Shown piece by piece: positions 7,998 through 39,210 of a stretch of DNA of 41,422 nucleotides. The DNA is taken from the NCBI GenBank assembly GCA_030618605.1, contig JAUXDC010000001.1:1-41422 (forward strand), in the 5' to 3' direction. Each line of letters begins with the position of its first letter. The first letter of the stretch is position 1. The notes beneath the pieces were generated by a model that saw only the letters and a program-made list of their open reading frames with translations, was not told the DNA's origin and did not search any database. Both the position numbers and the translations under genes were made by a program. Source of the stretch: Holophagae bacterium. Lineage in GTDB: Bacteria; Acidobacteriota; Thermoanaerobaculia; Thermoanaerobaculales; Sulfomarinibacteraceae.

Positions 7998-9839
7998 CTA
8001 CATAATCGCGTACAGGGCTGCTTTCTCCCCGGAACGAATCGCCGCGGCCTTGGCCGGGACGGTCGGAAGGGCGCGGTAGCCAAAGTGGATCGCCGTCTGC
8101 ACCTTGTTGTGGTAGAACGCCGCCTCTTCGTTGTCTGAGAGGAATGCCTTGTATGCCTTTTTGTCGTCGGTGTCGACTCCGGCGTCAGAAAGGATGGCGG
8201 CCAACTTGGTCTTGGCCAGCATTGCCTGATCCAAGAGGAAGTGGGCGCCGAGGCAGGTGCCGACCATGTCCAGCAGCGGCACGGCGTTGATCAGCATCAC
8301 TTGGATGCCGTCGGGCCTTTTGGGGAGTTCCTTGGCGATGGTTTCGACCTGTTTGAGGGCCGCGGCCAAGAGCCATGCGGGTTCCATCAACTCGGGGTCG
8401 TTCTTGGCCTTGTTGAAGGTCTTCTCGGCCATGCCCAGCAAATCCTTGATCGGTTGACCGCCGGCCAGGGACAGCTTGCGGGCAACGAAGTCCAGCGCCT
8501 GGATGCCGTTGGTACCCTCGTACAGACAGGCGATCTCGGCATCGCGCATGTACTGCTCCGCCGGGTATTCCTTGGTATAGCCATAGCCGCCGTGAACCTG
8601 AACGCAGGTATGGGTCACCTGCAGGCCCCACTCGGAGCACCAGGCTTTGCAGATCGGGGTCATGACCTCGACGTAGTTCCTGTACTTCTTGGCCTCGTCA
8701 CCCTCGGTGGAGTGGCTGAGATCGAGGTAGTAGGATGCTTGCAGCAGGATGGCGCGCATCGCTTCGACATAGGCCTTGGAGGTCAGGAGCATGCGGCGGA
8801 CATCGGGATGCTCGACGATGGCCACCTGGGGCGCCTCTGGATCTTTCATCATTTTCCAGTGGCGGCTTTGCAGGCGCTCCTTGGCAAAGGCCAGGGCCTG
8901 CTGGTGGGCGCCGCTGGCTGCAGCGCAGCCCTGCATTCCAACCTCGATCCTGGCGGCGTTCATCATGTAGAACATCAGCTTCATGCCTTGGAGTTCTTCG
9001 CCCAGGAGGAAGCCCCGGCAACCGTCGTTGGCGCCGAAGACCAGCGAGCAGGTCGGGGAGCCGTGGATGCCCATTTTCTCTTCGATGTTGGAACATGCAA
9101 CGTCATTGGCATCACCGAGGGAGCCGTCGCCGTTGACGCGGATCTTGGGCACGACGAAGAGGGAAAGACCTTTGGTGCCGGGAGGGGCGCCTGGTGTGCG
9201 TGCCAAGACCAGGTGAATGATATTTTCGGCCAGATTGTGATCGCCGGACGTAATGAAAATCTTCTCGCCCGAGATCAGATAACTGCCGTCGTCCTGCTTG
9301 GCGGCCTTGGTCGTCGAGGCGCCGACGTCGGATCCGGCCTGGGGCTCGGTCAGACACATCGTGCCGCCCCACTGTCCGGTATAGGTCTTTTCGACATAGG
9401 TATTCTTGAGTTCGTCGTTGCCGAAGTTCTCGATCATGACGCCGACGCCCCGGGTCAGCATCAGGGTCAGGGAGAGGGAGACGTTGCTGCCGGAGAAGAA
9501 CTCGTTGACAACGGTGCCGACAACGTCCGGCAGGCCCATGCCGCCGTACTCGGGAGAACCCAGCAGGCCGATCCAGCCGCCCTCGCAGACGGTGTCGTAG
9601 ACCGGCTTGAAGCTGTCGGGCATGGTGACCACGCCGTCGTTCCACTGGGCCCCGATGCGGTCGCCGTCCTCGTTGCAGGATGCCATCTGCTCCTGGGCGA
9701 TCTTGAGCGCCTCGTCGACGATCATGTCCATCTGCTCGAGATCCCAGTCGCCAAAGCGCTCGGATTCGAGCAGTTTTCCGGTGTCAAGCCACTCGAAAAG
9801 CTGAAACTTAATGTCACGAATATCGACTTTGTAACCCAC
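7998..9839 (-). CDS. Long-form acyl-CoA dehydrogenase (FadE-like, with extra C-terminal domain)
   Basis: 613 aa. ACAD motifs WGGTMCLTEPQAGSD and GGYGYTKEYPAEQYMRDA. GTG start preceded by AAGGAGG plus 6 nt. Confidence 0.85.
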   Translation of the reverse strand: MGYKVDIRDIKFQLFEWLDTGKLLESERFGDWDLEQMDMIVDEALKIAQEQMASCNEDGDRIGAQWNDGVVTMPDSFKPVYDTVCEGGWIGLLGSPEYGGMGLPDVVGTVVNEFFSGSNVSLSLTLMLTRGVGVMIENFGNDELKNTYVEKTYTGQWGGTMCLTEPQAGSDVGASTTKAAKQDDGSYLISGEKIFITSGDHNLAENIIHLVLARTPGAPPGTKGLSLFVVPKIRVNGDGSLGDANDVACSNIEEKMGIHGSPTCSLVFGANDGCRGFLLGEELQGMKLMFYMMNAARIEVGMQGCAAASGAHQQALAFAKERLQSRHWKMMKDPEAPQVAIVEHPDVRRMLLTSKAYVEAMRAILLQASYYLDLSHSTEGDEAKKYRNYVEVMTPICKAWCSEWGLQVTHTCVQVHGGYGYTKEYPAEQYMRDAEIACLYEGTNGIQALDFVARKLSLAGGQPIKDLLGMAEKTFNKAKNDPELMEPAWLLAAALKQVETIAKELPKRPDGIQVMLINAVPLLDMVGTCLGAHFLLDQAMLAKTKLAAILSDAGVDTDDKKAYKAFLSDNEEAAFYHNKVQTAIHFGYRALPTVPAKAAAIRSGEKAALYAIM

Positions 9840-21237: not shown

Positions 21238-21305
21238 CTGGAAAGGTGGCAATAGAACGGGCTCTGGGGGCTGCATATTTCTACATTCGCGCATATGATG
21301 GAATC

Positions 21306-22586
21306 ATGATAGCTGTGATTCAGGTCCTTGCTGCATCGTGGGCTCTCCTTGGGGAGATGGCGCCCTATCTCCTGTTTGGGTTCTTGGTCGCCGGGTTGTT
21401 GTCGGTCTTCGTCTCGCCGGAGTGGGTGGAACAGCATCTGGGCCGCAAGGGATTTGCCCAGGTTGCCAAGGCCAGTTTGTTTGGGGTTCCCTTGCCCTTG
21501 TGTTCATGCGGGGTCCTGCCTGTGGCGGCTTCCTTGAGGAGGCACGGCGCCGGAAAAGGGGCGACGACTGCGTTTCTACTCTCAACGCCCCAGACCGGAG
21601 TCGACAGCATCGCCGTTACATGGGCTTTGCTTGGCCCCGTTGTCGCGTTCATTCGACCGCTTGCGGCCTTCATTACCGGCATCGCCGGCGGTATGGTTGT
21701 TCAGGCTGTTGAACCGGACGAAGATCCGCAGACTCTGCCGGAAAAGGATGGAGGATGTGCGGATTCGTGTTGTTCTTCAGAGAGGGAAGAACACGCACTG
21801 TTTAAGGCTCTGCGCTACGGGTTCGTGACCCTGCCTCGGGATATTGGCAGGGCTCTTTTTGTCGGGCTGGTTCTCTCCGGGATCATCGCCGCTTTTCTCA
21901 ATCCTGATCATGTGAAGGTCGTCTTTGGAGGCGGGGTTCTGCCTTATCTGGTGGCGATGGCCGTGGGAATCCCGTTGTACGTCTGTGCGACTGCCTCAAC
22001 GCCGATCGCGGCCAGCCTGATCGGTGCCGGCCTGTCTCCCGGTGCAGCCTTGGTGTTTTTGATCTCAGGTCCGGCCACCAATGTCGCTTCGGTGACGACG
22101 TTGCTGAAAGTCCTCGGGAGGAAAACGGTGGCTGTGTACCTTGCCACGGTAGTCGTCGGGTCGTTGGCTACAGGCCTGGTGGTCGATTTCTTTTTTGGGA
22201 GGTGGGTGTTGACGGGTATGCCTGCCTCAGCGATCGAGGCGGTGCACCGTCATGCCGACGGCACGGTGGCAACGGGTTGGGGATTCAAGGAAATCAGTGC
22301 AGTAGTGCTGTTGGCCGTTCTTGTGGGGGCAATGTGGCCTCGCCGTTCCCGGGCTGTAGAAGAGAACTCGGGTGCCGAAAGCCTTGAGGAACGGTTGAGG
22401 TTGTCGGTCGGTGGGATGCGTTGTAATGGCTGCGTGACGAGCATCGGGCGTGCCTTGCGTGAAGTTGAGGGGGTCCGGGACGTCACGGTCGATCTTGCGG
22501 CGGCGAAGGCGATCGTGATCGGGATTGGGCTTGACTCCGAGGCCTTGTGCGCTGAGGTCAGGGCATTGGGGTTTGATTGCGAGTGA
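21306..22586 (+). CDS. DUF318/ArsP-type metal permease fused to a C-terminal HMA domain
   Basis: Permease motif GVPLPLCSCGVLPVAASL and many TM segments. C-terminal LSVGGMRCNGCVTSIGRALREVEGV is HMA-like. Start is uncertain: ATG 21306 or the track's GTG 21246. Confidence 0.75.
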   Translation: MIAVIQVLAASWALLGEMAPYLLFGFLVAGLLSVFVSPEWVEQHLGRKGFAQVAKASLFGVPLPLCSCGVLPVAASLRRHGAGKGATTAFLLSTPQTGVDSIAVTWALLGPVVAFIRPLAAFITGIAGGMVVQAVEPDEDPQTLPEKDGGCADSCCSSEREEHALFKALRYGFVTLPRDIGRALFVGLVLSGIIAAFLNPDHVKVVFGGGVLPYLVAMAVGIPLYVCATASTPIAASLIGAGLSPGAALVFLISGPATNVASVTTLLKVLGRKTVAVYLATVVVGSLATGLVVDFFFGRWVLTGMPASAIEAVHRHADGTVATGWGFKEISAVVLLAVLVGAMWPRRSRAVEENSGAESLEERLRLSVGGMRCNGCVTSIGRALREVEGVRDVTVDLAAAKAIVIGIGLDSEALCAEVRALGFDCE

Positions 22587-28533: not shown

Positions 28534-28679
28534 GATTCCTCCGTTCCCGTTGTCGGGACGGTACAGCGTAGGTGTTTGGGGGCGGCGAATCAAGAGTTTG
28601 GGCCGTGAGATCCGGTAATTGGTGAAAGAAATTCAGACTCCCCGATGTTATATTGCGTGGAACGCCTAAGGAGGCACTG

Positions 28680-30413
28680 ATGAATTTCCTAACCCAAATT
28701 TCAAAAGTCTGTCTGGCCCTGAGTGTCGCTGCATTTGCCGTCTCAGCCGAAACTGAGAACCCAGTTGCCGCCCTCGAGACCGCTCGTGATTCAGTTCAGC
28801 TCAAGGTCGTCAAGTTTGACATTTCGCCGCCTCTTCGGGACATCAAGGTCTCAAAGAAGACCGACCGGCCGTTGAAAATCTCTCGAGAACATGACACGCC
28901 GGAAGGATTGAACAAGCTGCCGGAAGGGTGGAGCGGCAAAAAGGGCTCGCGCTTCTCGCCGCACGTCCTGCAAAAGGCGCCGGGCACTCGAGCGGTGATT
29001 CCGGCCCCGACGGTCAACGTCGAGGGTCTGGGAACGGGCATCCCGGACTATCCCCTGGGTGGCGTTCCACCGGACACAACCGGGGGCGTCGGACCCAACT
29101 ACTACACCCAGTGGGTCAATACCTCATTTGCATTCTTCGACAAGACCGGTGCAATGGTTGATCTTTCGGGCAATGATTGGCGGAACGGCAACACCATCTG
29201 GTCGGGATTCGGGGGCAAATGTGAGTTGACCAATGACGGAGATCCGATCGTGGTTTACGATCAACTGGCCGGTCGTTGGGTGATGACGCAGTTTGGTCTG
29301 GGCCCGGGCAGTGGACCGCACTCCCAGTGCGTTGCCGTTTCGACCACCGGAGATCCTCTCGGGACATGGGTTCGGACCGAGTACGAATGGCCGAACAGCT
29401 ATCTCAACGACTATCCAAAGCTGGGCGTTTGGACTGACGGCTACTATCTCGCCGTCAATCAGTTCCTGTGCAATAACTCGTGGAGCTGCAGTTGGCGCGG
29501 CGCGGCAGTCGCCGTTTTCGATCGCGAAAATCTGATCCAGGGTATTGCGCCCCGGGCGCCCCAGTACTTCAACATCGGTCCCGCCTACGGCAGCTTGCTG
29601 CCGGCGGATATTGATGGCGACACGGTCCCCCCAGACGGATCCCCGGGGTACTTTTTCGCTGCCTATGACGGTGGCGGCACCGACTACATGGATATCTGGG
29701 AGACCTCGATCGACTGGGACACGCCCGCCAATTCGACCTGCGGCATCGCCACCAATGATCCCAACTCCAGTGTGGCTCTGACGTCCTTCTCGGCCTCCGG
29801 CGGCATCGACCAACCGGGGACGACCAACGATCTGGATTCTCTCAGCCCCCGATTGATGTTCCGGGCGGCCTACCGAAACTTTGATGATCACGAGTCCGTA
29901 CTGCTGTCCCACACGGTCGGGAATCCTGCAGGCATGAGGTGGTACGAAATCCGAAATCCTGGAGGAACTCCGGTCCTGTACCAGGAGGGAACCTACAGCC
30001 CCGATGCCGATGAGCGCTGGATGGGTGCGGTGTCGATGGACGGCAGTGGGAACATTGCCATGGGCTACAGTGTTTCCGGCGCCGCGGTCTCGCCCTCGAT
30101 CCGGGTGACAGGTCGTCTGGCCGACGATCCCCCGGGCACGATGACCTTTTCCGAGCTCGAGATCGCGACCGGGGCCGGTTATCAGAATCCCTCGTACGGC
30201 GCCAACCGGTGGGGCGACTATTCCACGATGTCGATCGACCCCTCGGACGACTGTACCTTCTGGTACACCCAGGAGTACATCACCACCACCGGCCAGTTCA
30301 TCTGGAAGACCCGGATTGCGGCATTCAAGTTCAACGAATGCGTGACCGGATCGGTTTTCTCAGACGGATTCGAAAGTTCCGACACCAGTGCGTGGAGTTT
30401 TGCTGGTCCGTAG
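28680..30413 (+). CDS. Exported hypothetical protein
   Basis: AAGGAGG, 6 nt, ATG at 28680. Signal peptide MNFLTQISKVCLALSVAAFAVSA. Motifs DPIVVYDQLAGRWVMTQF, DYPKLGVWTDGYYLAVNQF, RWGDYSTMSIDP. I could not assign a family. Confidence 0.7.
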   Translation: MNFLTQISKVCLALSVAAFAVSAETENPVAALETARDSVQLKVVKFDISPPLRDIKVSKKTDRPLKISREHDTPEGLNKLPEGWSGKKGSRFSPHVLQKAPGTRAVIPAPTVNVEGLGTGIPDYPLGGVPPDTTGGVGPNYYTQWVNTSFAFFDKTGAMVDLSGNDWRNGNTIWSGFGGKCELTNDGDPIVVYDQLAGRWVMTQFGLGPGSGPHSQCVAVSTTGDPLGTWVRTEYEWPNSYLNDYPKLGVWTDGYYLAVNQFLCNNSWSCSWRGAAVAVFDRENLIQGIAPRAPQYFNIGPAYGSLLPADIDGDTVPPDGSPGYFFAAYDGGGTDYMDIWETSIDWDTPANSTCGIATNDPNSSVALTSFSASGGIDQPGTTNDLDSLSPRLMFRAAYRNFDDHESVLLSHTVGNPAGMRWYEIRNPGGTPVLYQEGTYSPDADERWMGAVSMDGSGNIAMGYSVSGAAVSPSIRVTGRLADDPPGTMTFSELEIATGAGYQNPSYGANRWGDYSTMSIDPSDDCTFWYTQEYITTTGQFIWKTRIAAFKFNECVTGSVFSDGFESSDTSAWSFAGP

Positions 30414-30484
30414 GACTGTGTTTATTGGAGTTGCGGCGGCACTGTGGTTCCATTCCCCGACCGTCGAGGTGGCCAAGAAACGAG

Positions 30485-30493
30485 TGTTACAAT
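30485..30493 (+). promoter_or_regulatory. Extended -10 promoter element upstream of the DUF1573 gene
   Basis: TGTTACAAT (TGn + TACAAT), 41 nt upstream of ATG 30534. No clear -35. Confidence 0.35.
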
Positions 30494-30533
30494 TCTGCAC
30501 CGGTCCGGCTGGAGGCCGGCACAGGAGGTTTTG

Positions 30534-31724
30534 ATGAAGAGATTTCAACGGGCGGCCGTTCTTGCCGTCCTTATCACGGCGGCATCCGTGTCGTCGATGG
30601 TGTTTGCCGAGACCGAGCAGGGCGAGAAGGCTGCAAAGGGCTTCTGGGTCGAGGAGGCCAATATTCTGCTGGACTCCATTGCGGCCGGCACCGACGCGGT
30701 GGGAACCTTCATTTTTCACAATGACACCGACAAGGAAGTCAAGATCATCAAGGCCAAACCTTCTTGAGGATGCACAGTTGCCGAGTTTGACTCGGTGATC
30801 CCGGCCGGTCGGTCGGGTAAGCTCGTCGCCAAGGTTCATACCAGACCCACGCAGAGTGGCACGATGAATAAATCGATTTCTGTGGCCACGGATGCCCCAA
30901 ATGCCAAGAGTCTTCGGTTGTCAATGAAATTCTCAGTCGAGACCATGATCTCAATGAAGCCGCGACCCCAAATTTTCACCAACGCCATTGTTGGCGATGA
31001 GGCAAGCGGTCGGATTCTGTTGCACCGCAACGATGGTGAAAAGCTCGAGATTTCGGCAGTCCGTTATGAGAGCTCCGATATTGAAATTGAAGCCTTGCCC
31101 GTCGATCTGAAAGCTGAAAAGCCGGCCGGTTTCAAGCCGGAGGCCGGCGATATCTGGCTGGTCGCAAGGGTCAAAGATGGCGCAGGCCCGGGGAACTATT
31201 CCCTCAAAGTGTGGTTGACGACCAATCATCCAAAATTGACGGAGGTTGAGGTTCCGGTGACCTTCAGGATCAAGTCCTTGATCTCCGCTCATCCGGAACA
31301 GGTTCGGCTTTGGCTCCAGGAGTCCGGCGCGGGTCCCCGAGGTACGCTTTTCCGCATCATCAATAACGGGGGCGCCGACTTCGAGGTGACCTCCATTACC
31401 GTCGAGGACGAGGCGCTGGTCAAGGCGTCATTGGTGGCCGAAGGCTCGGCGAGAATGCACAATATCCGGGTTGAAGTTTTGGATGGTATCAAGGTTTCCG
31501 ACCTGGGACAGAAGGGGAAGACGACCGAACTGGTCATCGGCACCTCTGATCCGAAGCAGCCTGAGGTCCGGGTTCCTGTTCTGCTGGTACCACGACAGGC
31601 CGTCACTCGTCCGGGGCGGGGTCCCGCGGAACTCCGGCCGTCGGATATTCAGCGAATGGGCGTCACCAATAAGGTCGTTCCGCAGCCGTTGCCGACGGGG
31701 ACGCCGGGGGTTGGTGGATCGTAG
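30534..31724 (+). CDS. Exported DUF1573 repeat protein with in-frame TGA at 30765-30767 (candidate selenocysteine, otherwise a pseudogene)
   Basis: AGGAGG, 5 nt, ATG. Signal peptide MKRFQRAAVLAVLITAASVSSMVFA. Track ORFs 30444..30767 and 30795..31724 are in the same frame. The junction reads FIFHNDTDKEVKIIKAKPS-TGA-GCTVAEFDSVIPAGRSGKLVAKV, which matches the DUF1573 SCGCT core. Confidence 0.65.
30768..30801 (+). promoter_or_regulatory. SECIS-like stem-loop immediately 3' of the in-frame TGA
   Basis: Lower helix GGAU/AUCC (30768-71 / 30798-801). Upper 17-nt stem-loop GCCGAG-UUUGA-CUCGGU (30780-30796) starts 12 nt after the UGA and has a G in the apical loop. Confidence 0.4.
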
Positions 31725-31745
31725 GGGCGAAAGGTTTTTCGCCCC
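31724..31745 (+). terminator. GC hairpin at the DUF1573 gene stop (terminator- or REP-like, no U tract)
   Basis: GGGGCGAAA-GGTT-TTTCGCCCC, overlapping the TAG stop (31722-31724). Confidence 0.4.
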
Positions 31746-31953
31746 AACAGGCTCCTTTGTGTTTCTTTCTACCCTGGCTGTTGCAGGTGCCTTGTGCCTG
31801 TATGTGAGCGGGCTCGGGGACCTGCCCCTTCGACGCCGTTGACCTGAACCATACCTCCAATAATCCGTATCTCTATCAGTTGGAGTTTCGTTCGCTCGAA
31901 GCGTTTTTCACCGTACAATAGGGGCCGTTCGAGAGGGGCAAGGGAGAAGAAAA

Positions 31954-32904
31954 ATGGCACAAGGGTCTGAGACGATTGCTGCGGAATCCTTTTGTGCGGT
32001 CGAGGGCGTCCGCCATGTCTACAAGGGCGGAACGGTCGCGCTCGACGGCGTCGATCTCAGGATAGGAACCGGGCTCTTCGGTCTGCTTGGGCCCAACGGC
32101 GCCGGCAAGAGTACCTTGATGCGCATTTTGTGCACGCTCTTGGTTCCGACCGAAGGTCGTGCGGCAGTCGGCGGCTATGACGTCGTCACTCAGCGGGACG
32201 CTGTCCGCTCGCTGATCGGATACCTGCCTCAGGAATTCGGAGCCTGGCGGCTCCACCGGGTTGCCGAGGTCCTCGATACTCTGGCCTCACTCTCGGGTAT
32301 GCGGGACAAGGGTGAGAGGCGACTGAGAGTGGAGCAGGTGCTGGAACAAGTCGGTTTGGCCGAGGTCTCGGATCGGAAGGTCAAGAAACTCTCCGGCGGC
32401 ATGCTGAGGCGGTTGGGCGTGGCTCAGGCCCTGATCCACGAGCCGCGATTTCTCATTGTCGATGAACCGACGGTTGGTCTGGATCCTGAGGAGCGGCTCA
32501 GGTTCAGGGCGGTGATGGCTGAGTTGGCCAGAAACAGGACGATCATTCTGTCAACCCATATTGTGGCGGATCTGGGCTCGGGCTGCGAGGACCTGGCCCT
32601 GATTGACCGTGGAAAAGTAGTCTTCAGGGGCTCGCCGTCGGAACTGCTGCAGCGATCTCGGGGCAAGGTCATCGAGGTCGAGGTGGATCAGGCGGGCGAG
32701 ATGGCGGTCCTGGAGTTGATTGAGGTGGTTGCACGTTCGGCCCACGGGGGACGGGTGCACATCCGGGGTGTGCTCAAGAGCGAACGGGCAGTCTCGGGAT
32801 CAACACCGGTAGCTGATCCGACCCTGGAAGAGGCCTACCTGGCATTTATGGTCGGCCGTGGGCGGGGCGGCGTCCTGGACGAGGGGGAGGTGGCCAATGC
32901 GTAA
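31954..32904 (+). CDS. ABC transporter ATP-binding protein
   Basis: Walker A GPNGAGKST, signature LSGGMLRRLGVAQAL, Walker B FLIVDEPTVGLDP. GGGAG SD. Confidence 0.9.
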   Translation: MAQGSETIAAESFCAVEGVRHVYKGGTVALDGVDLRIGTGLFGLLGPNGAGKSTLMRILCTLLVPTEGRAAVGGYDVVTQRDAVRSLIGYLPQEFGAWRLHRVAEVLDTLASLSGMRDKGERRLRVEQVLEQVGLAEVSDRKVKKLSGGMLRRLGVAQALIHEPRFLIVDEPTVGLDPEERLRFRAVMAELARNRTIILSTHIVADLGSGCEDLALIDRGKVVFRGSPSELLQRSRGKVIEVEVDQAGEMAVLELIEVVARSAHGGRVHIRGVLKSERAVSGSTPVADPTLEEAYLAFMVGRGRGGVLDEGEVANA

Positions 32905-35900
32905 AGATGTCGTTCTTTCGGTCATGCGGGCGGAACTGCGCCTGACGCGCCGCCTGGTTCGCTATTGGATCTTTTTGACACTGGCTCTTCTGTCCGGCCT
33001 GGTGATCTACCTCTATTACTGCGCTCTGCACGCCGTCTTTTCTTCGTATTCAGGTACGGCGGCCAATATCGGTCCGCGGTTTCTGATCGGCGCGATGGGG
33101 CTCTACTATGTCGGTTTCTTCCTCTTCGGTCTGGTATTCATGGCCTTTGACGTGCGGGCCAGAGATGTTCGTGAGCGCATGGTGGAGGTGCTCGACGCTC
33201 GCCCGATGACGACGCCTGAGTTGATGGTGGGCCGGTTCACGGCTCAATTGCTGGCGGCCTGGGTGCCGGCGTGGGTGATGGTGGCCTTGATGCAGTTGCT
33301 GGGCTTCGCACTGCCCGCACTGGGTGCACCCATTGGACAGCCTCTGCAACCGACATCCCTTGTGATGTTCGTTCTCTTGATGTGCTTGCCGGCCATGGCC
33401 TTCGGTTTGGCGCTGACCTACCTTGTGACCCTTCTGGTTCGGAACCGTCTGATCGCCGCGGTGGTCACGATCGGAGCGCTGGTCGGCATTATCTGGGCCT
33501 CGTTCAAGGTCTCCCCCGTTGCTTCGGTCTTCCTCGACGTCAGCGGCATGTACTCGGTGTTGTTTCCGTCGGACATCCTGCCGGGCATGGCTGATCTGGC
33601 CGGCTTTCTTCAGCGACTGGGATACCTTGTGGCGGCTTCTGGCCTTTTGGCATTGGCTATTGCCGTCCATCCCCGTCAGGATGGCGGCTCCCGCCGTCTT
33701 CGTGCCGTTCTCGGGGCTGGGTTGATGGCCGCAGCGGTGGCAATTTTGGGCGCCGGAGCGGGACTCAGGGCTTCCAATATCCGCCAGCTGGACGAATGGC
33801 TGGCTGCCCACGAGGCACGAGCCTCCGAGCAGCGCCCGGACATCATTCGGATCGATGCCACGACGGATATCGAGCCCGGGAAGGCGATCACCGTTGACGC
33901 GGAGATTGTCATTTCTGCACCGGGCGAGAGTGCGCTTGATCGGGTCCTGCTGACCCTCAATCCGGGCCTGGAGGTCCACGAGGTCACGGTCGACGGGTCA
34001 GATATCTCCTTTGAACACTCGGATGGATTGCTGGAACTCGACCTGAGGTTGGATCCCGGTGCCGAACGGCGGGTACGCTTGCGATACTCAGGCAAACCCG
34101 ATATCCGCTTTGGCTACCTGGACGCAGTTCGCACTCCCGAGCGATTGCCGGCGATGGAAGCACAGCTCTATATCCTGGGTTACGACCGTGGTCTGAACGA
34201 TCGGCGTTACGTGGCCCTGATGCCGGCGATCGGCTGGTTACCCCGGAGCGGGGCGGCAGTGGAGCCGAAGGATGGCTCCGGTCTGGGGCCGGACTTCTTT
34301 GAGGTTGACCTCGAGGTCTCGGTGCCTGATGGTTGGCTGGCCGCCGGCCCGGGGGCTCGGCATGACGAGGGATTGACCGACGGGCGATCGATATTCCGTT
34401 TTGATCCCGGCGCACCGGTTGACGGTGCTGCGGTCGTGACCTCGGTCTTCGAGACCTTCGCCTTCGATGCTGAGGGCATCACGCTTGAGTTGCTGTTAAC
34501 GCCGGGCCACCTGAGAACGGTTGAGGATCTCTCCGATGCGCGTGATGCCATCAAGGAACGCGTGGCGGACCGGTTGCAAGAGTTCGCAGAGGCGGGACTG
34601 ACCTATCCCTATGATGGATTCACCGTCGTTGAGGCGCCCAACGCTCTGCGGGGCTTTGGTGGCGGGTGGCGCCTTGGATCAGTTCTGAGCCAGCCTGGAA
34701 TGATGCTGGTGCGGGAGTTGGGCTTTCCCTTGGCCCGATTCGACGTGCCATTCCGGGACGAGTCAGACTGGCAGGACCACGAGGGTGGTCTGCCTCAGGC
34801 CAAGCTGGAGCGATTGGAAGAATTCTTTATCAACGATTTTTCGGGAGGAAATCTCTTCACCGGCGCCGCGAGGTCGTTTGGCATGACCCAGTGTTCGGCG
34901 CGTGGGCCGGGGAGAGAGGCGCTGGATTGGACGCTTGACGAGCTGGGAACCCTGATGATGTCCGGCACTCGGGGTTACTTCTCGGCCCACCTCTTCACTC
35001 CTGAAATGAACTCCAAGATCGGCCAGGTGATTCAGGGGCACTTGATCGGCGGCGGTGGAGGTCACTTCGCAGACTCGTTGATCGAGGTCTTTGCCTCTCG
35101 ACCGGCCGTGTGGAAGGCTGTTCTGGACACCTCGCCGGTCGATATTGATCCGTGGGATGACCCCCAAAAGGCGATTGACGGGCTGTCCTTGAAAGCGGGA
35201 ACCCTGGCCCAGGTGATCTACGACGATATCGGTTTTGAGGGTAGCGCTGCCCTGCTGGCCTCCCTGAGGCGAGACTTTTCGGGGACTACTTTTACGCTGG
35301 ATGATGCTGTCGCGGCGGCTGAGCGACAGGATCAGGGCCTGGGTCGGATGATCGAGGACCTGCTGACGACGACAAATCTCCCAGGTCTGGTCGGACAGCA
35401 AACCGAAGCCTATCGTCTTCCGGACGGAACGGATGGTGGCGCCCGCTATCAGTTGAACCTGGTTGTGCGGAACGACGAGGCGACCCCAGGACTGTTTCGG
35501 GTTGTTTATTACGTCGGCGCCGATGACGACCAGGAGCGGGAGGAGAGCGAACCCTTGAGGATCGATGGACAGTCCGCCGTCCGATTTTCGACGGTTCTGA
35601 CCCGTCCGCCGACCGGGGTTTGGGTCCATCCCTACCTCAGTCTCAACCGGAGCAGCTTCCGAGTGCCCCTGGCCGAGGTCGATGAGACGGCTGTCGTCGA
35701 GGCCGAGCCTTCAGAGGGCGTGACGATATCTGAGTTTGAGATCGCCGACAGCGATGTCGTTATCATCGACGATCTGGACGACGGATTTGAGGTTTCTGAG
35801 GGCGATGGCCCCTCTGGGTTGCGTCTCGGCGCAAAGGGTCAGGATGATGCCGAGTTGGACCAAGGGCTCCCAGTTGAAGAATTTGGTCCTATGCCCAAGG

Positions 35901-36295
35901 CCTGGTCCCGCGCTACATCGGCCACGGCCTACGGACGTTACCGTCATACGCTGGCTTGGATGCGTAAGGGGAAAGGCGAAAGTAGCGCCCGGTTCACCGG
36001 AGTCGTCCCTCAATCGGGGCCGTGGGAGTTGGCGATCCACCTGCCCCACAAGCAGCGTTTCCGGATGGCCCGGAAATGGGGTGTGTGGAAACTTGCAGTA
36101 GTGCAAGGAGATCAGCGGCACGAAATCGGCTTTGACGCGGGGGAGGCACCCCGAGGCTGGAACCTGGTCGACAGTTTTGATCTGGAAGGCGGCGACGTGA
36201 CCGTTGAGTTTTCGGACGAGACGACCGGTATGATTGTCGTGGCCGATGCCGTGCGGTGGACACCGATTGCACGAACAGGCGGGGAGGTCGAATGA
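32897..36295 (+). CDS. ABC-2-type permease fused to a very large extracytoplasmic region
   Basis: ATG 32897 (GGAGG, 7 nt) overlaps the ATPase stop by 8 nt. About 6 N-terminal TM segments are followed by about 800 aa of soluble sequence. The tail GDVTVEFSDETTGMIVVADAVRWTP resembles golvesin-C-like domains (tentative). No HExxH anywhere. Confidence 0.75.
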   Translation: MRKDVVLSVMRAELRLTRRLVRYWIFLTLALLSGLVIYLYYCALHAVFSSYSGTAANIGPRFLIGAMGLYYVGFFLFGLVFMAFDVRARDVRERMVEVLDARPMTTPELMVGRFTAQLLAAWVPAWVMVALMQLLGFALPALGAPIGQPLQPTSLVMFVLLMCLPAMAFGLALTYLVTLLVRNRLIAAVVTIGALVGIIWASFKVSPVASVFLDVSGMYSVLFPSDILPGMADLAGFLQRLGYLVAASGLLALAIAVHPRQDGGSRRLRAVLGAGLMAAAVAILGAGAGLRASNIRQLDEWLAAHEARASEQRPDIIRIDATTDIEPGKAITVDAEIVISAPGESALDRVLLTLNPGLEVHEVTVDGSDISFEHSDGLLELDLRLDPGAERRVRLRYSGKPDIRFGYLDAVRTPERLPAMEAQLYILGYDRGLNDRRYVALMPAIGWLPRSGAAVEPKDGSGLGPDFFEVDLEVSVPDGWLAAGPGARHDEGLTDGRSIFRFDPGAPVDGAAVVTSVFETFAFDAEGITLELLLTPGHLRTVEDLSDARDAIKERVADRLQEFAEAGLTYPYDGFTVVEAPNALRGFGGGWRLGSVLSQPGMMLVRELGFPLARFDVPFRDESDWQDHEGGLPQAKLERLEEFFINDFSGGNLFTGAARSFGMTQCSARGPGREALDWTLDELGTLMMSGTRGYFSAHLFTPEMNSKIGQVIQGHLIGGGGGHFADSLIEVFASRPAVWKAVLDTSPVDIDPWDDPQKAIDGLSLKAGTLAQVIYDDIGFEGSAALLASLRRDFSGTTFTLDDAVAAAERQDQGLGRMIEDLLTTTNLPGLVGQQTEAYRLPDGTDGGARYQLNLVVRNDEATPGLFRVVYYVGADDDQEREESEPLRIDGQSAVRFSTVLTRPPTGVWVHPYLSLNRSSFRVPLAEVDETAVVEAEPSEGVTISEFEIADSDVVIIDDLDDGFEVSEGDGPSGLRLGAKGQDDAELDQGLPVEEFGPMPKAWSRATSATAYGRYRHTLAWMRKGKGESSARFTGVVPQSGPWELAIHLPHKQRFRMARKWGVWKLAVVQGDQRHEIGFDAGEAPRGWNLVDSFDLEGGDVTVEFSDETTGMIVVADAVRWTPIARTGGEVE

Positions 36296-36315
36296 GAAGT
36301 CGGGCCGGATTCTCC

Positions 36316-36341
36316 GATGCCACTGATCGGCCAGTGGCATC
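36316..36341 (+). terminator. Perfect 10-bp hairpin after the permease-fusion gene (no U tract)
   Basis: GATGCCACTG-ATCGGC-CAGTGGCATC, 21 nt after the stop at 36295. Confidence 0.4.
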
Positions 36342-36356
36342 GAATGTGCGAGGGAA

Positions 36357-36499
36357 GTTTCAAATTCTCAATTTCAAATTCTCAATTTTGAATTTCAGAA
36401 CGAAACGTTCTTACGCCTCTCCCTCTTTAAATAAGGGGTTAGGGGCAGGGGTGAGGAAGTCAGGGGTTTATAATTCAAAATTCAAAATTCAAAATTCAA
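36357..36499. repeat. AT-rich heptamer/14-mer tandem arrays
   Basis: TTTCAAATTCTCAA x2 is perfect (36358-36385). AATTCAA x4 is perfect (36472-36499). A G-rich core lies between them. Confidence 0.8.
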
Positions 36500-36504
36500 A
36501 ATTA

Positions 36505-37599
36505 TTGATTTCTGATCCCCCTCGTCGATTGAGGTCCACCACCGCTGCCCTGGCCACCTGCCTCTGCCTGATACTGATCGGCTGTGGGCCAGGACGAACC
36601 GATGAGCCCGTCGAGTTCAAGGTGCCGGTCACGGTCGCCGAGGTAGGAACAGGCGTTGTCGAAGACCGGATCAGAGCCACCGGATCCCTCCGTGCTTCAC
36701 AGGTTGTCACATTGACCGTCGAGAGCCGTGGAATCCTCAATCTCGCCAGAAAGGATGGGCGCCGGTTGGCCGAGGGGGACCGGGTGAGGGTCGGCCAAGT
36801 CGTTGCCGAGATCTCCGGTGAAGACGTTCGGGTGGCGGCACGGACTGCGGCGACCCGGCGACGCTTCGAGAGCGCCCAGAGCGATTTCGAGGCCACTCGC
36901 GAACTCTTTGATCAGGGTCTGATTAACGAGGCGGAACTCCGGCGGGCCGAGACGACGCTCGAGGATGCCCGCCTCGAGTATGACCGGAGTCTCCTGGTCG
37001 AGGTCCGCAACCGTCTGGTGACACCGATTGATGGGGTCATCTTGACCCTGGCCAGAGATGTCAACGGGCGGCCGATGGCGGACGGTCAGTTGGTGGCACC
37101 AGGATTCGCGGTCGCACAGATTGCACCGACCGGGGAGTTGGTCGCCGATATCGACATCGTAGGCTTGGATGTCGCCCGTATTCGTGAAGGGCTTCCTGTC
37201 AGGGTGTTGCATCACGCCTTCGGTGATCAGGAGTTCGAAGGCCGTGTCGTGCGTTTGGCACCCTCGATCAACGAACTGACCCGTGCCTTGCGGGCGGAGG
37301 TTGGCGTCGACAATTCAAGCGGTCTGTTAAGACCCGGGATGTTCGTCGAGGCGGAGGTCTTGATCGAACGCCGGGAGGGCGTTGCCGTCGTACCCCGGGA
37401 TGCCGTTGCCGACAGGGCGGGCAAACGGGTGGTCTTTGTCCTTCAGGGGCAGCGGGTCGTCCGCCGAGAGGTTGAGCTGGGTCTCGGGGATGACCGAATG
37501 GTCGAGGTTCGGTCCGGTATTGAGCAAGGCGAACGAGTCGTCGTGCGAGGCCTGGAGACCCTGACCGATGGGTCGCGGGTGCGGGTGACGGGGACGTAG
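36505..37599 (+). CDS. RND efflux periplasmic adaptor (MFP/HlyD family) lipoprotein
   Basis: Lipobox LILIGCG, then RIRATGSLRASQVVTLTVESRGIL..., ...GMFVEAEVLIERREGVAVVPRDAV.... Start is uncertain (TTG 36505 or TTG 36529). The track's start at 36256 runs through the repeat arrays and overlaps the upstream gene. Confidence 0.8.
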   Translation: MISDPPRRLRSTTAALATCLCLILIGCGPGRTDEPVEFKVPVTVAEVGTGVVEDRIRATGSLRASQVVTLTVESRGILNLARKDGRRLAEGDRVRVGQVVAEISGEDVRVAARTAATRRRFESAQSDFEATRELFDQGLINEAELRRAETTLEDARLEYDRSLLVEVRNRLVTPIDGVILTLARDVNGRPMADGQLVAPGFAVAQIAPTGELVADIDIVGLDVARIREGLPVRVLHHAFGDQEFEGRVVRLAPSINELTRALRAEVGVDNSSGLLRPGMFVEAEVLIERREGVAVVPRDAVADRAGKRVVFVLQGQRVVRREVELGLGDDRMVEVRSGIEQGERVVVRGLETLTDGSRVRVTGT

Positions 37600-37846
37600 G
37601 CTGGGATGCTAGGACGCTGGGACGCTAGGATGCTAGGACGCTGGGACGCTAGGATGCTGGGACGCTGGGATGCTGGAAGGCAAGACATAAGAGGGCACCG
37701 CTGCGGATCTGGAGATCCACGCCCCACGAGCACGTCCTGTGTCCGGGGCGAGCGAAAAACCTATTGTCCCTTCTTTTCGATCTGGACGAAAAAGGTAACT
37801 CCTTGCCTCCTGGTTTCCGGGCTTCCTAGCCTTCCAGCCTCCCAGC
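37600..37846. repeat. GCTGGGAY/GCTAGGAY octamer array (x10) with inverted 5-unit partner
   Basis: Ten contiguous octamers at 37600-37679. Reverse-complement units (CTCCTGGT TTCCGGGC TTCCTAGC CTTCCAGC CTCCCAGC) at 37807-37846. Lies between convergent genes. Confidence 0.85.
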
Positions 37847-37851
37847 GTTTT

Positions 37852-39210
37852 TCAGTCCGGGTGCGCCCAGTCATGCTCGGGATCAATGGTGACGGTGCAG
37901 TGATCCCGCAGCCCGAGTTCGTCGATGAGAGGTTGGTCCGCAAGCAAGACTGCGATGGCCGCATAATGTCCGCCTTGACGGAACATCGGTGCAGCCGTGG
38001 TGATTGCGATGACCAAAACTACCGTTGCAACGGCCCACATCGCCAGAACTCTTTTGGTTGCCGTACGTCGTCGGGTCCTCAAGAGGGCTTCGAGCGGGAC
38101 CACGACAGTCAGAGCGATCGTCGCCATCAAAATCTGGGTCTGCCAGTACATTATCGTTGTCGGAGAGGCTGCGAAGGACAGGGCCGCGGTGCAGCAGGCC
38201 ACAGACAGGTAGCCCTTGAGCCAGCCGCGGAGGGGGCCATCGGCCTCCTGCGACCACGGACGGCGCCGGCGTGCCTTGCGGAAGAGACGGGCGACGGCCC
38301 AGATCGGCACCAGGACACTCAGATGAGCGACCCCGGCCAGGAGGGTCATTGGAGGCAGCAGCCAGTGATCGACGCCTGCGCCGAAGACTGGTGTGAAGTC
38401 GAAAGCCGTCAAACGGGACGGCAGGGAGAGCGATGCCATTCTCAGGGTGTAGCCCAGGCCTCGGGCCATCGGATAGATCAGAGCCAGACCTCGGAAGGGG
38501 AAACCGGCCCCGGCCGGCGCCAGGCTGGGATCGGCGGCGATGGCATGGATCCAGGGGATGAGCGACAGCAGGGTCGCGCACGTCGCTGCTGCCAAGGCGC
38601 TCCAGTGGACCTTGATCAATCGTGTGGCAAAAAGGGCAATCGAGATCAGTGCGAGCAAGGCTGCAGAAGAATGGAGTTGGGCGCCCAGTCCAATCACCAG
38701 GACGTGGGCGAAGGTCGCCAATGCGACGGGTTTTCGTCTCATGTGGATGGCGGTCGCCAGGTGAAGCAAACCCATCGGCAAGGCGTAGTTCGGGGGCCAG
38801 ATGAAGGACGAGAAGGCCATTCGCCAGGGACCCAGCCACAGGAGAAGGAGCAACAGCCATCGGCCCCGAGACCCCAGGGCCGGTCGGATCGAGCGTTCGA
38901 GGAAGAGGAAGGCCGCCATGTTGATGACGACCATCGACAGGGCCAAAGCCCGGAAGTCCCACCAGATCATAAGCGGCACCGCAGAGAAAAGAGTGATCAG
39001 GCTCCCTGGCGAGAATCCACCGGCCGAGGTCGGCATTCCATGTGGCAGGAGGACATCCTGGGTGATCCACCACCAGCCGAATCGCAATTGGTTGACCTGG
39101 TCCGCTTCGACCTGGGATCTGAGGGCCATCACGATCGACACGGCCAAACCCAGGCCGAAGATCGACCAATACAATACGGTACGGGAGGGTGAGCGGAATG
39201 CAGAGTTCAT
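37852..39210 (-). CDS. Polytopic integral membrane protein, function unknown
   Basis: 452 aa with at least 10 hydrophobic segments (e.g. LLLLLLWLGPWRMAFSSFIWPP, ALLALISIALFATRLI). I recognised no catalytic motif. Confidence 0.65.
   Translation of the reverse strand: MNSAFRSPSRTVLYWSIFGLGLAVSIVMALRSQVEADQVNQLRFGWWWITQDVLLPHGMPTSAGGFSPGSLITLFSAVPLMIWWDFRALALSMVVINMAAFLFLERSIRPALGSRGRWLLLLLLWLGPWRMAFSSFIWPPNYALPMGLLHLATAIHMRRKPVALATFAHVLVIGLGAQLHSSAALLALISIALFATRLIKVHWSALAAATCATLLSLIPWIHAIAADPSLAPAGAGFPFRGLALIYPMARGLGYTLRMASLSLPSRLTAFDFTPVFGAGVDHWLLPPMTLLAGVAHLSVLVPIWAVARLFRKARRRRPWSQEADGPLRGWLKGYLSVACCTAALSFAASPTTIMYWQTQILMATIALTVVVPLEALLRTRRRTATKRVLAMWAVATVVLVIAITTAAPMFRQGGHYAAIAVLLADQPLIDELGLRDHCTVTIDPEHDWAHPD

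Follow-up and report, generated by a model that had tools for sequence, protein, structure and literature searches.

How is an in-frame TGA codon to be read when it interrupts what otherwise appears to be one gene for a secreted protein? The codon in question lies at positions 30765-30767 of a 41,422-nucleotide stretch of DNA (the window; forward strand of contig JAUXDC010000001.1, assembly GCA_030618605.1) from a Holophagae bacterium that GTDB places in the acidobacterial class Thermoanaerobaculia, and it takes the place of the first cysteine in the Cys-Gly-Cys (C-G-C) motif of a DUF1573 (PF07610) protein. We consider it very probable that this UGA is a selenocysteine (Sec) codon in a secreted DUF1573 protein, because TGA is found in every orthologue and Cys in every paralogue, because purifying selection is evident on both sides of the codon, and because constraint at the RNA level is concentrated just 3' of it. 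The comparison draws on metagenome-assembled genomes (MAGs) of Thermoanaerobaculia and on metagenome sequences. An initial annotation, made from the letters of the window, had proposed Sec at the same codon and had set against it a simple nonsense mutation.

The window sequence, the list of open reading frames (ORFs) and the in-frame translation bear out the annotated arrangement, in which two ORFs sharing a frame (30444..30767 and 30795..31724) are separated by a single stop, the TGA at 30765-30767. Reading through this codon gives one gene of 396 codons, Sec78 counted, which extends on the forward strand from 30534 to the TAG stop at 31722-31724 and would be a complete selenoprotein gene; the same read-through architecture with an upstream signal peptide is found in 18 distinct orthologues. 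The translation across the junction is ...FIFHNDTDKEVKIIKAKPS-[TGA]-GCTVAEFDSVIPAGRSGKLVAKVHT..., the left side ending in IIKAKPS. The motif codons in the window, TGA-GGA-TGC, would specify U-G-C, with Cys at the TGA column in paralogues, and the junction peptide with Sec would read PS-U-GCTVAEFDSVIPAGR. The partner of Sec78 in this motif, Cys80 (TGC at 30771-30773), is an invariant Cys, encoded by TGC in 111 and by TGT in 5 of 116 sequences. The likely start of translation is ATG 30534, with a Shine-Dalgarno sequence AGGAGG (30523-30528, forward strand) 5 nt upstream, and the N-terminus that begins there, MKRFQRAAVLAVLITAASVSSMVFA followed by Glu, has the features of a signal peptide (predicted Sec-type, here in the sense of the secretion pathway; 30534-30608, cleavage after VFA). 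An N-terminus of the same kind, basic and hydrophobic, is present in all orthologues. As had been annotated, these features belong to the upstream ORF only, and GTG 30795, with which the downstream ORF starts, lacks a Shine-Dalgarno sequence. In profile searches, for which Cys was put in place of Sec, the protein matches PF07610 with 49.3 bits (E=5e-13; gathering cutoff 26.1) over residues 40-132 (30651-30929, forward strand) and profile positions 4-95 of 98. The match includes the C-G-C column, with the TGA at its first Cys, in accordance with the initial assignment.

Decisive for the reading of the TGA is the comparison of orthologues and paralogues. In a protein database search, the close homologues number 31 (34-100% identity); their length is 233-310 amino acids, and each covers only the part downstream of the TGA. 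Homologues that are full length and contain PF07610 are distant ones only (~25% identity). Since the close relatives start after the TGA in every record, the gene callers are understood to truncate all of them at the same place. The DNA around eight of these close homologues has TGA at exactly the same codon in each of the eight, preceded by an intact signal peptide and by a separately called ORF of 74-80 amino acids. Named genomes, one for each GTDB species, were scanned with peptide patterns independent of the TGA, and this yielded 80 loci, nearly all from Acidobacteriota of the class Thermoanaerobaculia. Searches that did not select for TGA thus gave 18 distinct orthologous junctions from Thermoanaerobaculia MAGs (32-89% protein identity), all 18 of them with TGA, and this includes every orthologue from the named genomes (loci L010-L023, 32-89% identity). 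Paralogues with a locatable motif, having 24-32% identity to the window protein, instead show Cys-Gly-Cys at the aligned column in 65 of 65 cases, with the first Cys encoded by TGC (59) or TGT (6). A metagenome scan using a pattern that did require TGA added at least 120 stretches with 103 distinct junctions, all of them in a DUF1573 context; many of the metagenome contigs of the Sec clade originate from sediments. A neighbour-joining tree of the domain, rough as it is, shows the main Sec clade as monophyletic and free of Cys forms.

A nonsense mutation in a DUF1573 gene would involve only a one-base change from TGC or TGT to TGA, and it, too, would cause gene callers to split the gene. Against such a pseudogene stands the occurrence of the same TGA in all 18 orthologues, down to 32% identity, and in the metagenome stretches. 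Truncated or frameshifted orthologues, which the initial annotation had named as evidence that would favour a dead gene, were not encountered: each orthologue retains an intact reading frame and signal peptide. The ratio of nonsynonymous to synonymous substitution rates (dN/dS) stays under 1 before as well as after the codon, with pairwise medians of 0.29 upstream and 0.43 downstream (0.30 and 0.13, respectively, between the window and L010), and these ratios indicate purifying selection on either half of the gene. The divergence of the orthologues, with dS above 1, excludes a single dead allele that has spread recently. With the localised RNA-level constraint shown below added to these points, a pseudogene becomes highly improbable, and the choice made between Sec and nonsense mutation in the initial annotation is upheld. 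An error of sequencing or assembly at 30765-30767 is scarcely credible. Nothing specific favours it, the window being probably a MAG contig, and it is contradicted by three further, independent sequencing runs, in which the window's exact downstream protein recurs with the ORFs split likewise, and by the presence of the TGA in dozens of assemblies that were made independently in separate projects.

Could the TGA instead be a true stop that delimits two separate products, a secreted peptide of 77 amino acids and a protein of ~300 amino acids started downstream? All public gene calls treat the locus in this way. The TGA would, however, cut the DUF1573 β-sandwich in mid-domain. An AlphaFold2 model of the full-length Cys paralogue P0033 (pLDDT, the predicted local distance difference test score, of 90), which has the same architecture as the window protein, shows three tandem β-sandwich domains and places its C-G-C (residues 76-78) in a tight turn of the first of them, between strands 67-74 and 79-83. 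The called downstream starts are scattered 12-159 nt after the TGA and therefore give no conserved start codon. The missing Shine-Dalgarno sequence at GTG 30795 and the absence of a signal peptide from a downstream part that is nonetheless homologous to secreted paralogues also argue against two products, which we regard as very unlikely.

The RNA immediately downstream of the Sec codon carries a constraint of its own. Upstream of the TGA, third codon positions vary freely in the 18 junctions (Phe, TTT 10 and TTC 8; Asp, GAC 10 and GAT 8; Ala with four codons). Between codons +5 and +16, one finds frozen codons: GCC 17/17, GAG 18/18, GAC 18/18, TCG 18/18, ATC 17/17, CCG 17/18, GGT 18/18 and TCG 18/18. 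Codon entropy is zero in 7 of 11 conserved-residue columns of this segment, compared to 1 of 78 elsewhere in the gene (Fisher p = 3.7e-7), and the freezing is seen also in 116 distinct sequences. The Cys paralogues encode a near-identical peptide (CGCTVAEFD...) but use mixed codons for it, for instance at Gly+14 (GGC 34, GGG 10, GGA 14, GGT 4). The GGT codon is kept at this position in 111 of 116 sequences of the Sec form, compared to 4 of 62 Cys paralogues, and the paralogue sequences fold more weakly at the same GC content of 66% (-14.9 vs -23.7 kcal/mol). As read from these alignments, there is a constraint on the RNA that is localised just 3' of the TGA.

The constrained segment folds into two abutting hairpins. 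The first, H1 (30777-30799, forward strand; nt +10 to +32 after the UGA), has the sequence GUUGCCGAGU-UUG-ACUCGGUGAU with a 10-bp stem and a UUG loop; at -10.9 kcal/mol (z = -5.0), it is not equalled by any of 200 shuffled sequences, and the frozen codons GCC, GAG, GAC and TCG fall within it. Its core is the 17-nt stem-loop GCCGAG-UUUGA-CUCGGU (30780-30796), 12 nt after the UGA. This is the element that the initial annotation had described as resembling a selenocysteine insertion sequence (SECIS); the stem-loop proved real and at the stated distance, whereas its loop lacks a G at its first or second position, and the second hairpin, the one with the GGU loop common to the lineages, had been missed. 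That hairpin, H2 (30800-30817, forward strand; nt +33 to +50), is CCCGGCC-GGUC-GGUCGGG, with a 7-bp stem, an apical loop GGUC and a free energy of -12.2 kcal/mol. Together, H1 and H2 reach -23.3 kcal/mol, again unmatched in 200 shuffles. In 112 distinct sequences, the two-hairpin model has 90% of alignment cells paired (93% for H1), compared to 27-47% when the 3' partners are slid; compensatory changes occur in three pairs, the pairs 45-56 and 48-53 of H2 covary, and the covariation score of the model is matched by none of 500 shuffles. A lower GGAU/AUCC helix, which had also been proposed, did not hold up: it is not conserved, shows no covariation and competes with better-conserved pairings. 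Its third pair needs an A at a Gly wobble position where 116 sequences have GGC (61), GGA (43), GGG (6) and GGT (6).

Covariation is at its clearest outside the main clade. At least two further U-G-C DUF1573 lineages derive from organisms of ~40% GC, one represented by L102 (TGA at oriented position 9196) and L120, the other by L106 (TGA at 534). L106, with 41% GC, rebuilds both hairpins at the same register, H1 as ACUGAAU/AUUCAGU in place of GCCGAGU/ACUCGGU and H2 as CCUUCC-UGGAC-GG(A)AAGG, by double changes that are mostly synonymous and include two double synonymous compensations in H1. L102 and L120 (40% GC), in which Lys replaces Ser at codon +9, are without H1 and have kept H2 (CCCGCC-UGGUCA-GUCGGG), likewise with its register unchanged. 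H2 is consequently the element common to the main clade and the two low-GC Sec lineages. Because of this, and because the U of its loop is held by a GGT codon that is otherwise rare, H2 is probably the part that binds SelB. In the tree, L102 and L106 fall outside the main clade and nearer to the Cys paralogues, a placement that suggests either several switches between Cys and Sec or an old Sec state.

Regarding the fit to known bacterial SECIS elements, the consensus used by bSECISearch (PMC13188914, Fig. 2A) has an apical loop that measures 3-9 nt and tops an upper stem of 4-16 bp, a G in the first two loop positions, 16-37 nt from the UGA to the apical loop and a minimum free energy (MFE) of -7.5 kcal/mol or lower; some elements are known not to fit this model (PMC13188914). 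Loop and stem sizes lie within the consensus for both hairpins (H1, loop 3-5 nt and stem 6-10 bp; H2, loop 3-6 nt and stem 6-7 bp). So does the MFE of both in the window, and the clade means are -11.6 for H1 and -9.3 kcal/mol for H2, with a few H2 variants weaker, up to -5.7 kcal/mol. The two hairpins part in the remaining features. A G in the first two loop positions is found in none of 113 H1 loops (UCG, ACG, UUG, CACGA and similar) but in 112 of 113 H2 loops (AGGUGG, GGUC, GGU and similar), where GGU is nearly invariant; the distance from UGA to loop is 18-19 nt for H1, inside the consensus range, and 38-39 nt in 112 of 113 for H2, which is 1-2 nt beyond it. The arrangement thus shares with bacterial SECIS elements a stable stem-loop within the coding region directly 3' of the UGA and, in H2, a small apical loop beginning (N)GGU. 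It departs from the consensus in being a tandem of two abutting hairpins rather than one, H1 having the canonical distance without the canonical loop and H2 the canonical loop beyond the distance of the model. The GGUC loop of H2 in the window is also the tetraloop of the fdhF SECIS of Escherichia coli. H1 presumably starts at the distance of the minimal E. coli hairpin (11-12 nt from the UGA; the initial annotation gives 17 nt for its length and 11 nt for the distance).

Sec at this position of DUF1573 is not new in itself. The initial annotation did not know DUF1573 as a selenoprotein family, and in this it has to be corrected: a 'DUF1573 domain-containing protein' (PF07610, motif UGC) is listed as a selenoprotein in two reviews (PMC9312934, PMC13188914), both citing Zhang & Gladyshev 2007 (PMC1976440), and NCBIfam has an entry NF041425, 'OS_HP2 family (seleno)protein'. 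The prediction of OS_HP2 drew on two ORFs with TGA that belong to deltaproteobacteria living in a worm, the Olavius delta-1 and delta-4 symbionts, and the sequences of the Olavius symbionts contributed no Cys homologue to the count (PMC1976440, Table 2); the selenoprotein status of the family is a computational prediction (PMC1976440). The window protein shares with OS_HP2 the Pfam domain, the position of Sec at the first Cys of C-G-C and a prediction logic that is identical, composed of in-frame TGA, downstream stem-loop and Cys homologues. It differs in belonging to an acidobacterial (Thermoanaerobaculia) clade that is monophyletic and has proteins of ~375-405 amino acids with two extra immunoglobulin (Ig)-like domains and a PLPTGTP tail. 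The clade is also farther from NF041425 than are the Cys paralogues and the low-GC lineages: with the curated cutoff set at 100 bits, a score of 69.1 bits is obtained for the window protein (aligned over profile positions 6-98 of 98) and one of 68-69 bits for two other clade members, compared to 77-99.6 bits for Cys paralogues from Thermoanaerobaculia and Planctomycetota and 85-86 bits for L102 and L106. Going by these scores, the window protein is a relative of the NF041425 family and not a member as NCBI curates it. Selenoproteins have been reported in Acidobacteria at the level of the phylum, and we found no report in the literature of Sec use in Thermoanaerobaculia. In every public record seen, members of the Sec clade are unnamed or 'hypothetical' and split into ORFs of ~77 and ~300 amino acids. 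With the discovery at the family level dating from 2007, what is new here is an unannotated acidobacterial clade below the curated cutoff.

The Cys-containing DUF1573 paralogues (from Thermoanaerobaculia, other Acidobacteriota and Planctomycetota; P0032-P0039, L024-L089) resemble the Sec form in their three-domain secreted architecture and in the core motif P-[STA]-C-G-C-T-V-A-E-[FY]-D. They are distinct from it in having Cys for Sec, in free synonymous variation and in having Lys for Ser at codon +9, because of which the 3' arm of H1 cannot form in them. Eight MAGs hold a Sec form together with a Cys-form three-domain paralogue on a different contig (L010/L032, L011/L031, L012/L039, L013/L034, L014/L027, L016/L057, L022/L024 and L023/L028), and the Sec form is therefore a specialised copy in addition to the Cys form, not a replacement.

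Several points weigh against the assignment of Sec. The stem cores are invariant within the main clade, where it is the constancy of synonymous sites, rather than covariation, that supports the hairpins. Neither hairpin alone combines all four features of the bacterial consensus, H1 deviating in the loop and H2 in the spacing, and Rfam gave no SECIS match, neither for the whole window at gathering thresholds nor for 30700-30900 at E <= 10, the sole hit being a spurious small nucleolar RNA. The window protein scores below the curated OS_HP2 cutoff. Pfam annotation of 27 ORFs of the window recovered housekeeping genes and an export cluster of the ATP-binding cassette (ABC)/HlyD type without selA, selB or selD; ARAGORN found no tRNA-Sec in the window or the related loci; and tblastn with SelA, SelB and SelD from E. 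coli over 1.14 Mb of related contigs, covered as flanks reaching up to ~14 kb, returned only matches to GTPase domains, such as that of IF-2 in the window. These genes need not be linked to a selenoprotein gene, so that their absence is uninformative. Finally, incorporation of selenium has been predicted only computationally, for the clade as for the family.

A further alternative accepts the readthrough and assigns to the UGA a residue other than Sec, whether Cys from a selC* tRNA(Cys) or a residue from an allo-tRNA acting as suppressor. It draws on the proposals that allo-tRNAs in Acidobacteria may act as nonsense suppressors and that selC* tRNA(Cys), a mimic of tRNA-Sec, may read UGA in other anaerobes (PMC5389517). 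Yet the groups in which selC* turned up were Firmicutes, Thermodesulfobacteria, Nitrospirae and Proteobacteria, Acidobacteria not being among them (PMC5389517); a conserved hairpin with GGU loop is the signature of SelB-dependent decoding; and the codon occupies a classic Sec/Cys position in a redox-type motif of a family already listed as selenoprotein. Moreover, TGA is an ordinary stop in these genomes, terminating 11 of the 26 window genes and, among orthologues of the gene itself, 8 of 17, and general suppression would be harmful under these circumstances. We therefore hold another residue to be unlikely. The same stop usage leaves only a negligible probability for a genome-wide reassignment of UGA to a sense codon, of the type of code 4 or code 25, in favour of which nothing speaks; long housekeeping genes (IF-2, PNPase, NusA) are read normally under table 11. 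A scan for other read-through candidates in the window produced only spurious long ORFs, numerous in this 60%-GC sequence.

With UGA 30765-30767 taken as a Sec codon, a course of events can be proposed by analogy with the established bacterial pathway. The complex of SelB, GTP and Sec-tRNA(Sec) would bind the mRNA structure situated directly 3' of the UGA, namely the tandem of H1 and H2; the GGU apical loop of H2 is of a type that SECIS elements bound by SelB typically have. H1, folding back on itself, would bring the base of H2 near the mRNA entrance at the time the UGA is in the A site. After insertion of Sec, translation would go on for 318 more codons to the TAG at 31722. Export and removal of the signal peptide would then release a protein of three tandem Ig-like β-sandwich domains, the first being DUF1573, in which Sec78-Gly-Cys80, situated in a tight turn between two β-strands, could join in a selenenylsulfide or act as ligands of a metal or a chalcogen. 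Since Sec generally marks sites of this kind, our best guess is that Sec78 and Cys80 may constitute an extracytoplasmic site for redox chemistry or for metal or chalcogen binding. A sequence search of the PDB had no match for the window protein, and Foldseek with the P0033 model against the PDB returned tandem Ig/ASH domains of ciliary central-apparatus proteins (HYDIN/CFAP-type), cadherins and 2qsv, a Porphyromonas protein of unknown function, all of them generic matches without a functional lead. A match of the window protein to a HYDIN/VesB-like Ig domain is below threshold, and the literature that mentions DUF1573 does not address its function.

We tentatively extend the proposal to the RNA element itself. 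It is possible, if rather doubtful, that H1 and H2 together represent a bipartite and distinct class of SECIS, in which H1 serves as a spacer that folds back at the mRNA entrance so that the abutting H2 presents the SelB-binding GGU loop in spite of a linear distance of 38-39 nt from the UGA. H2 has held its register in a minimum of three Sec lineages of DUF1573, which differ greatly in GC content.

The remainder of the protein consists of two further Ig-like β-sandwich domains, at approximately residues 139-247 and 250-350 (30948-31583, forward strand; boundaries taken from the paralogue model, with P143, T230 and P254 as alignment anchors), and of a Pro/Arg-rich C-terminal tail (31584-31721, forward strand; defined from the alignment consensus) ending in PLPTGTP (31686-31706). 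The PLPTGTP sequence is found in the window and in L001, L003, L004 and L006 (twice in L006) and is absent from more distant orthologues; it is different from the LPXTG sortase signal and is not followed by a hydrophobic segment. A perfect 9-bp stem-loop, GGGGCGAAA-GGUU-UUUCGCCCC (31725-31746), stands directly after the TAG stop with no T-run behind it. A scan for promoters and terminators around the gene at 30534-31724 performed no better than chance, and the stem-loop at 31725-31746 was not called as an intrinsic terminator.

The relatives of the gene have a recurrent neighbourhood. The usual order is rhomboid, LarA_N (PF09861), cupin, 4Fe-4S/AF_0155 protein, Sec-DUF1573, radical S-adenosylmethionine (SAM) protein on the opposite strand and cmk (for example, L008 205-2694 and L004 3901-6363). 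Among 67 loci, a 4Fe-4S (ferredoxin-like) gene is directly upstream in 48, LarA_N is present in 42, and radical SAM and cmk in 37 each. The conserved order could reflect an operon link or mere synteny within one class. The window, L010 and L167 are rearranged at this locus: directly upstream of the Sec gene they have a 586-amino acid protein (28653-30413, forward strand, in the window; 94% identity in L010 and 95% in L167) with a signal-peptide-like N-terminus and no Pfam match, which takes the place of the ancestral LarA_N/cupin/Fer4 neighbours. Downstream in the window, a cluster at 31954-39192 (forward strand) comprises an ABC ATPase (31954-32904), a 1145-amino acid protein with a C-terminal Golvesin_C domain (32858-36295, its start lying within the ATPase gene), a membrane-fusion protein similar to HlyD (36256-37599) and a 528-amino acid protein without Pfam match. 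Behind the Sec gene, the ATPase and Golvesin_C genes recur in L001 and L003, and the ATPase gene recurs in L011 and L012; the short loci of L010 and L167 contain none of the ABC ATPase, Golvesin_C and HlyD-like genes. Elsewhere in the window are an ArsP-type permease (PF03773) fused to a C-terminal heavy-metal-associated (HMA) domain (21246-22586, forward strand) and a 586-amino acid protein of the class-V aminotransferase fold (PF00266; 6144-7904, reverse strand), the fold of cysteine desulfurases and selenocysteine lyases, which is much longer than usual and is not SelA.

Lastly, recognition of the gene as one that encodes a selenoprotein would have consequences for annotation and for the study of the family. 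It would mend the records of dozens of Thermoanaerobaculia MAGs and of more than 100 metagenome contigs, which NF041425 misses, and it would enlarge by one member the selenoproteome of Acidobacteriota, of which little has been described. The 112 distinct sequences and the two low-GC lineages offer a large natural alignment of a SECIS that has tandem hairpins and lies on the margin of the consensus model, useful to refine SECIS predictors and to test the tolerance of SelB for spacing. Because Sec almost always marks redox or metal-binding sites, the C-G-C turn is flagged as a probable site of this type in DUF1573, a functionally uncharacterised domain with a wide distribution. In the tentative reading of a bipartite SECIS, the retention of H2 in the three lineages would mean either an ancient Sec state with repeated replacement of Sec by Cys or a transfer of Sec codon and SECIS as one module; in addition, the tight synteny with the LarA_N, cupin and 4Fe-4S genes could point to an uncharacterised extracytoplasmic redox function that is dependent on selenium.

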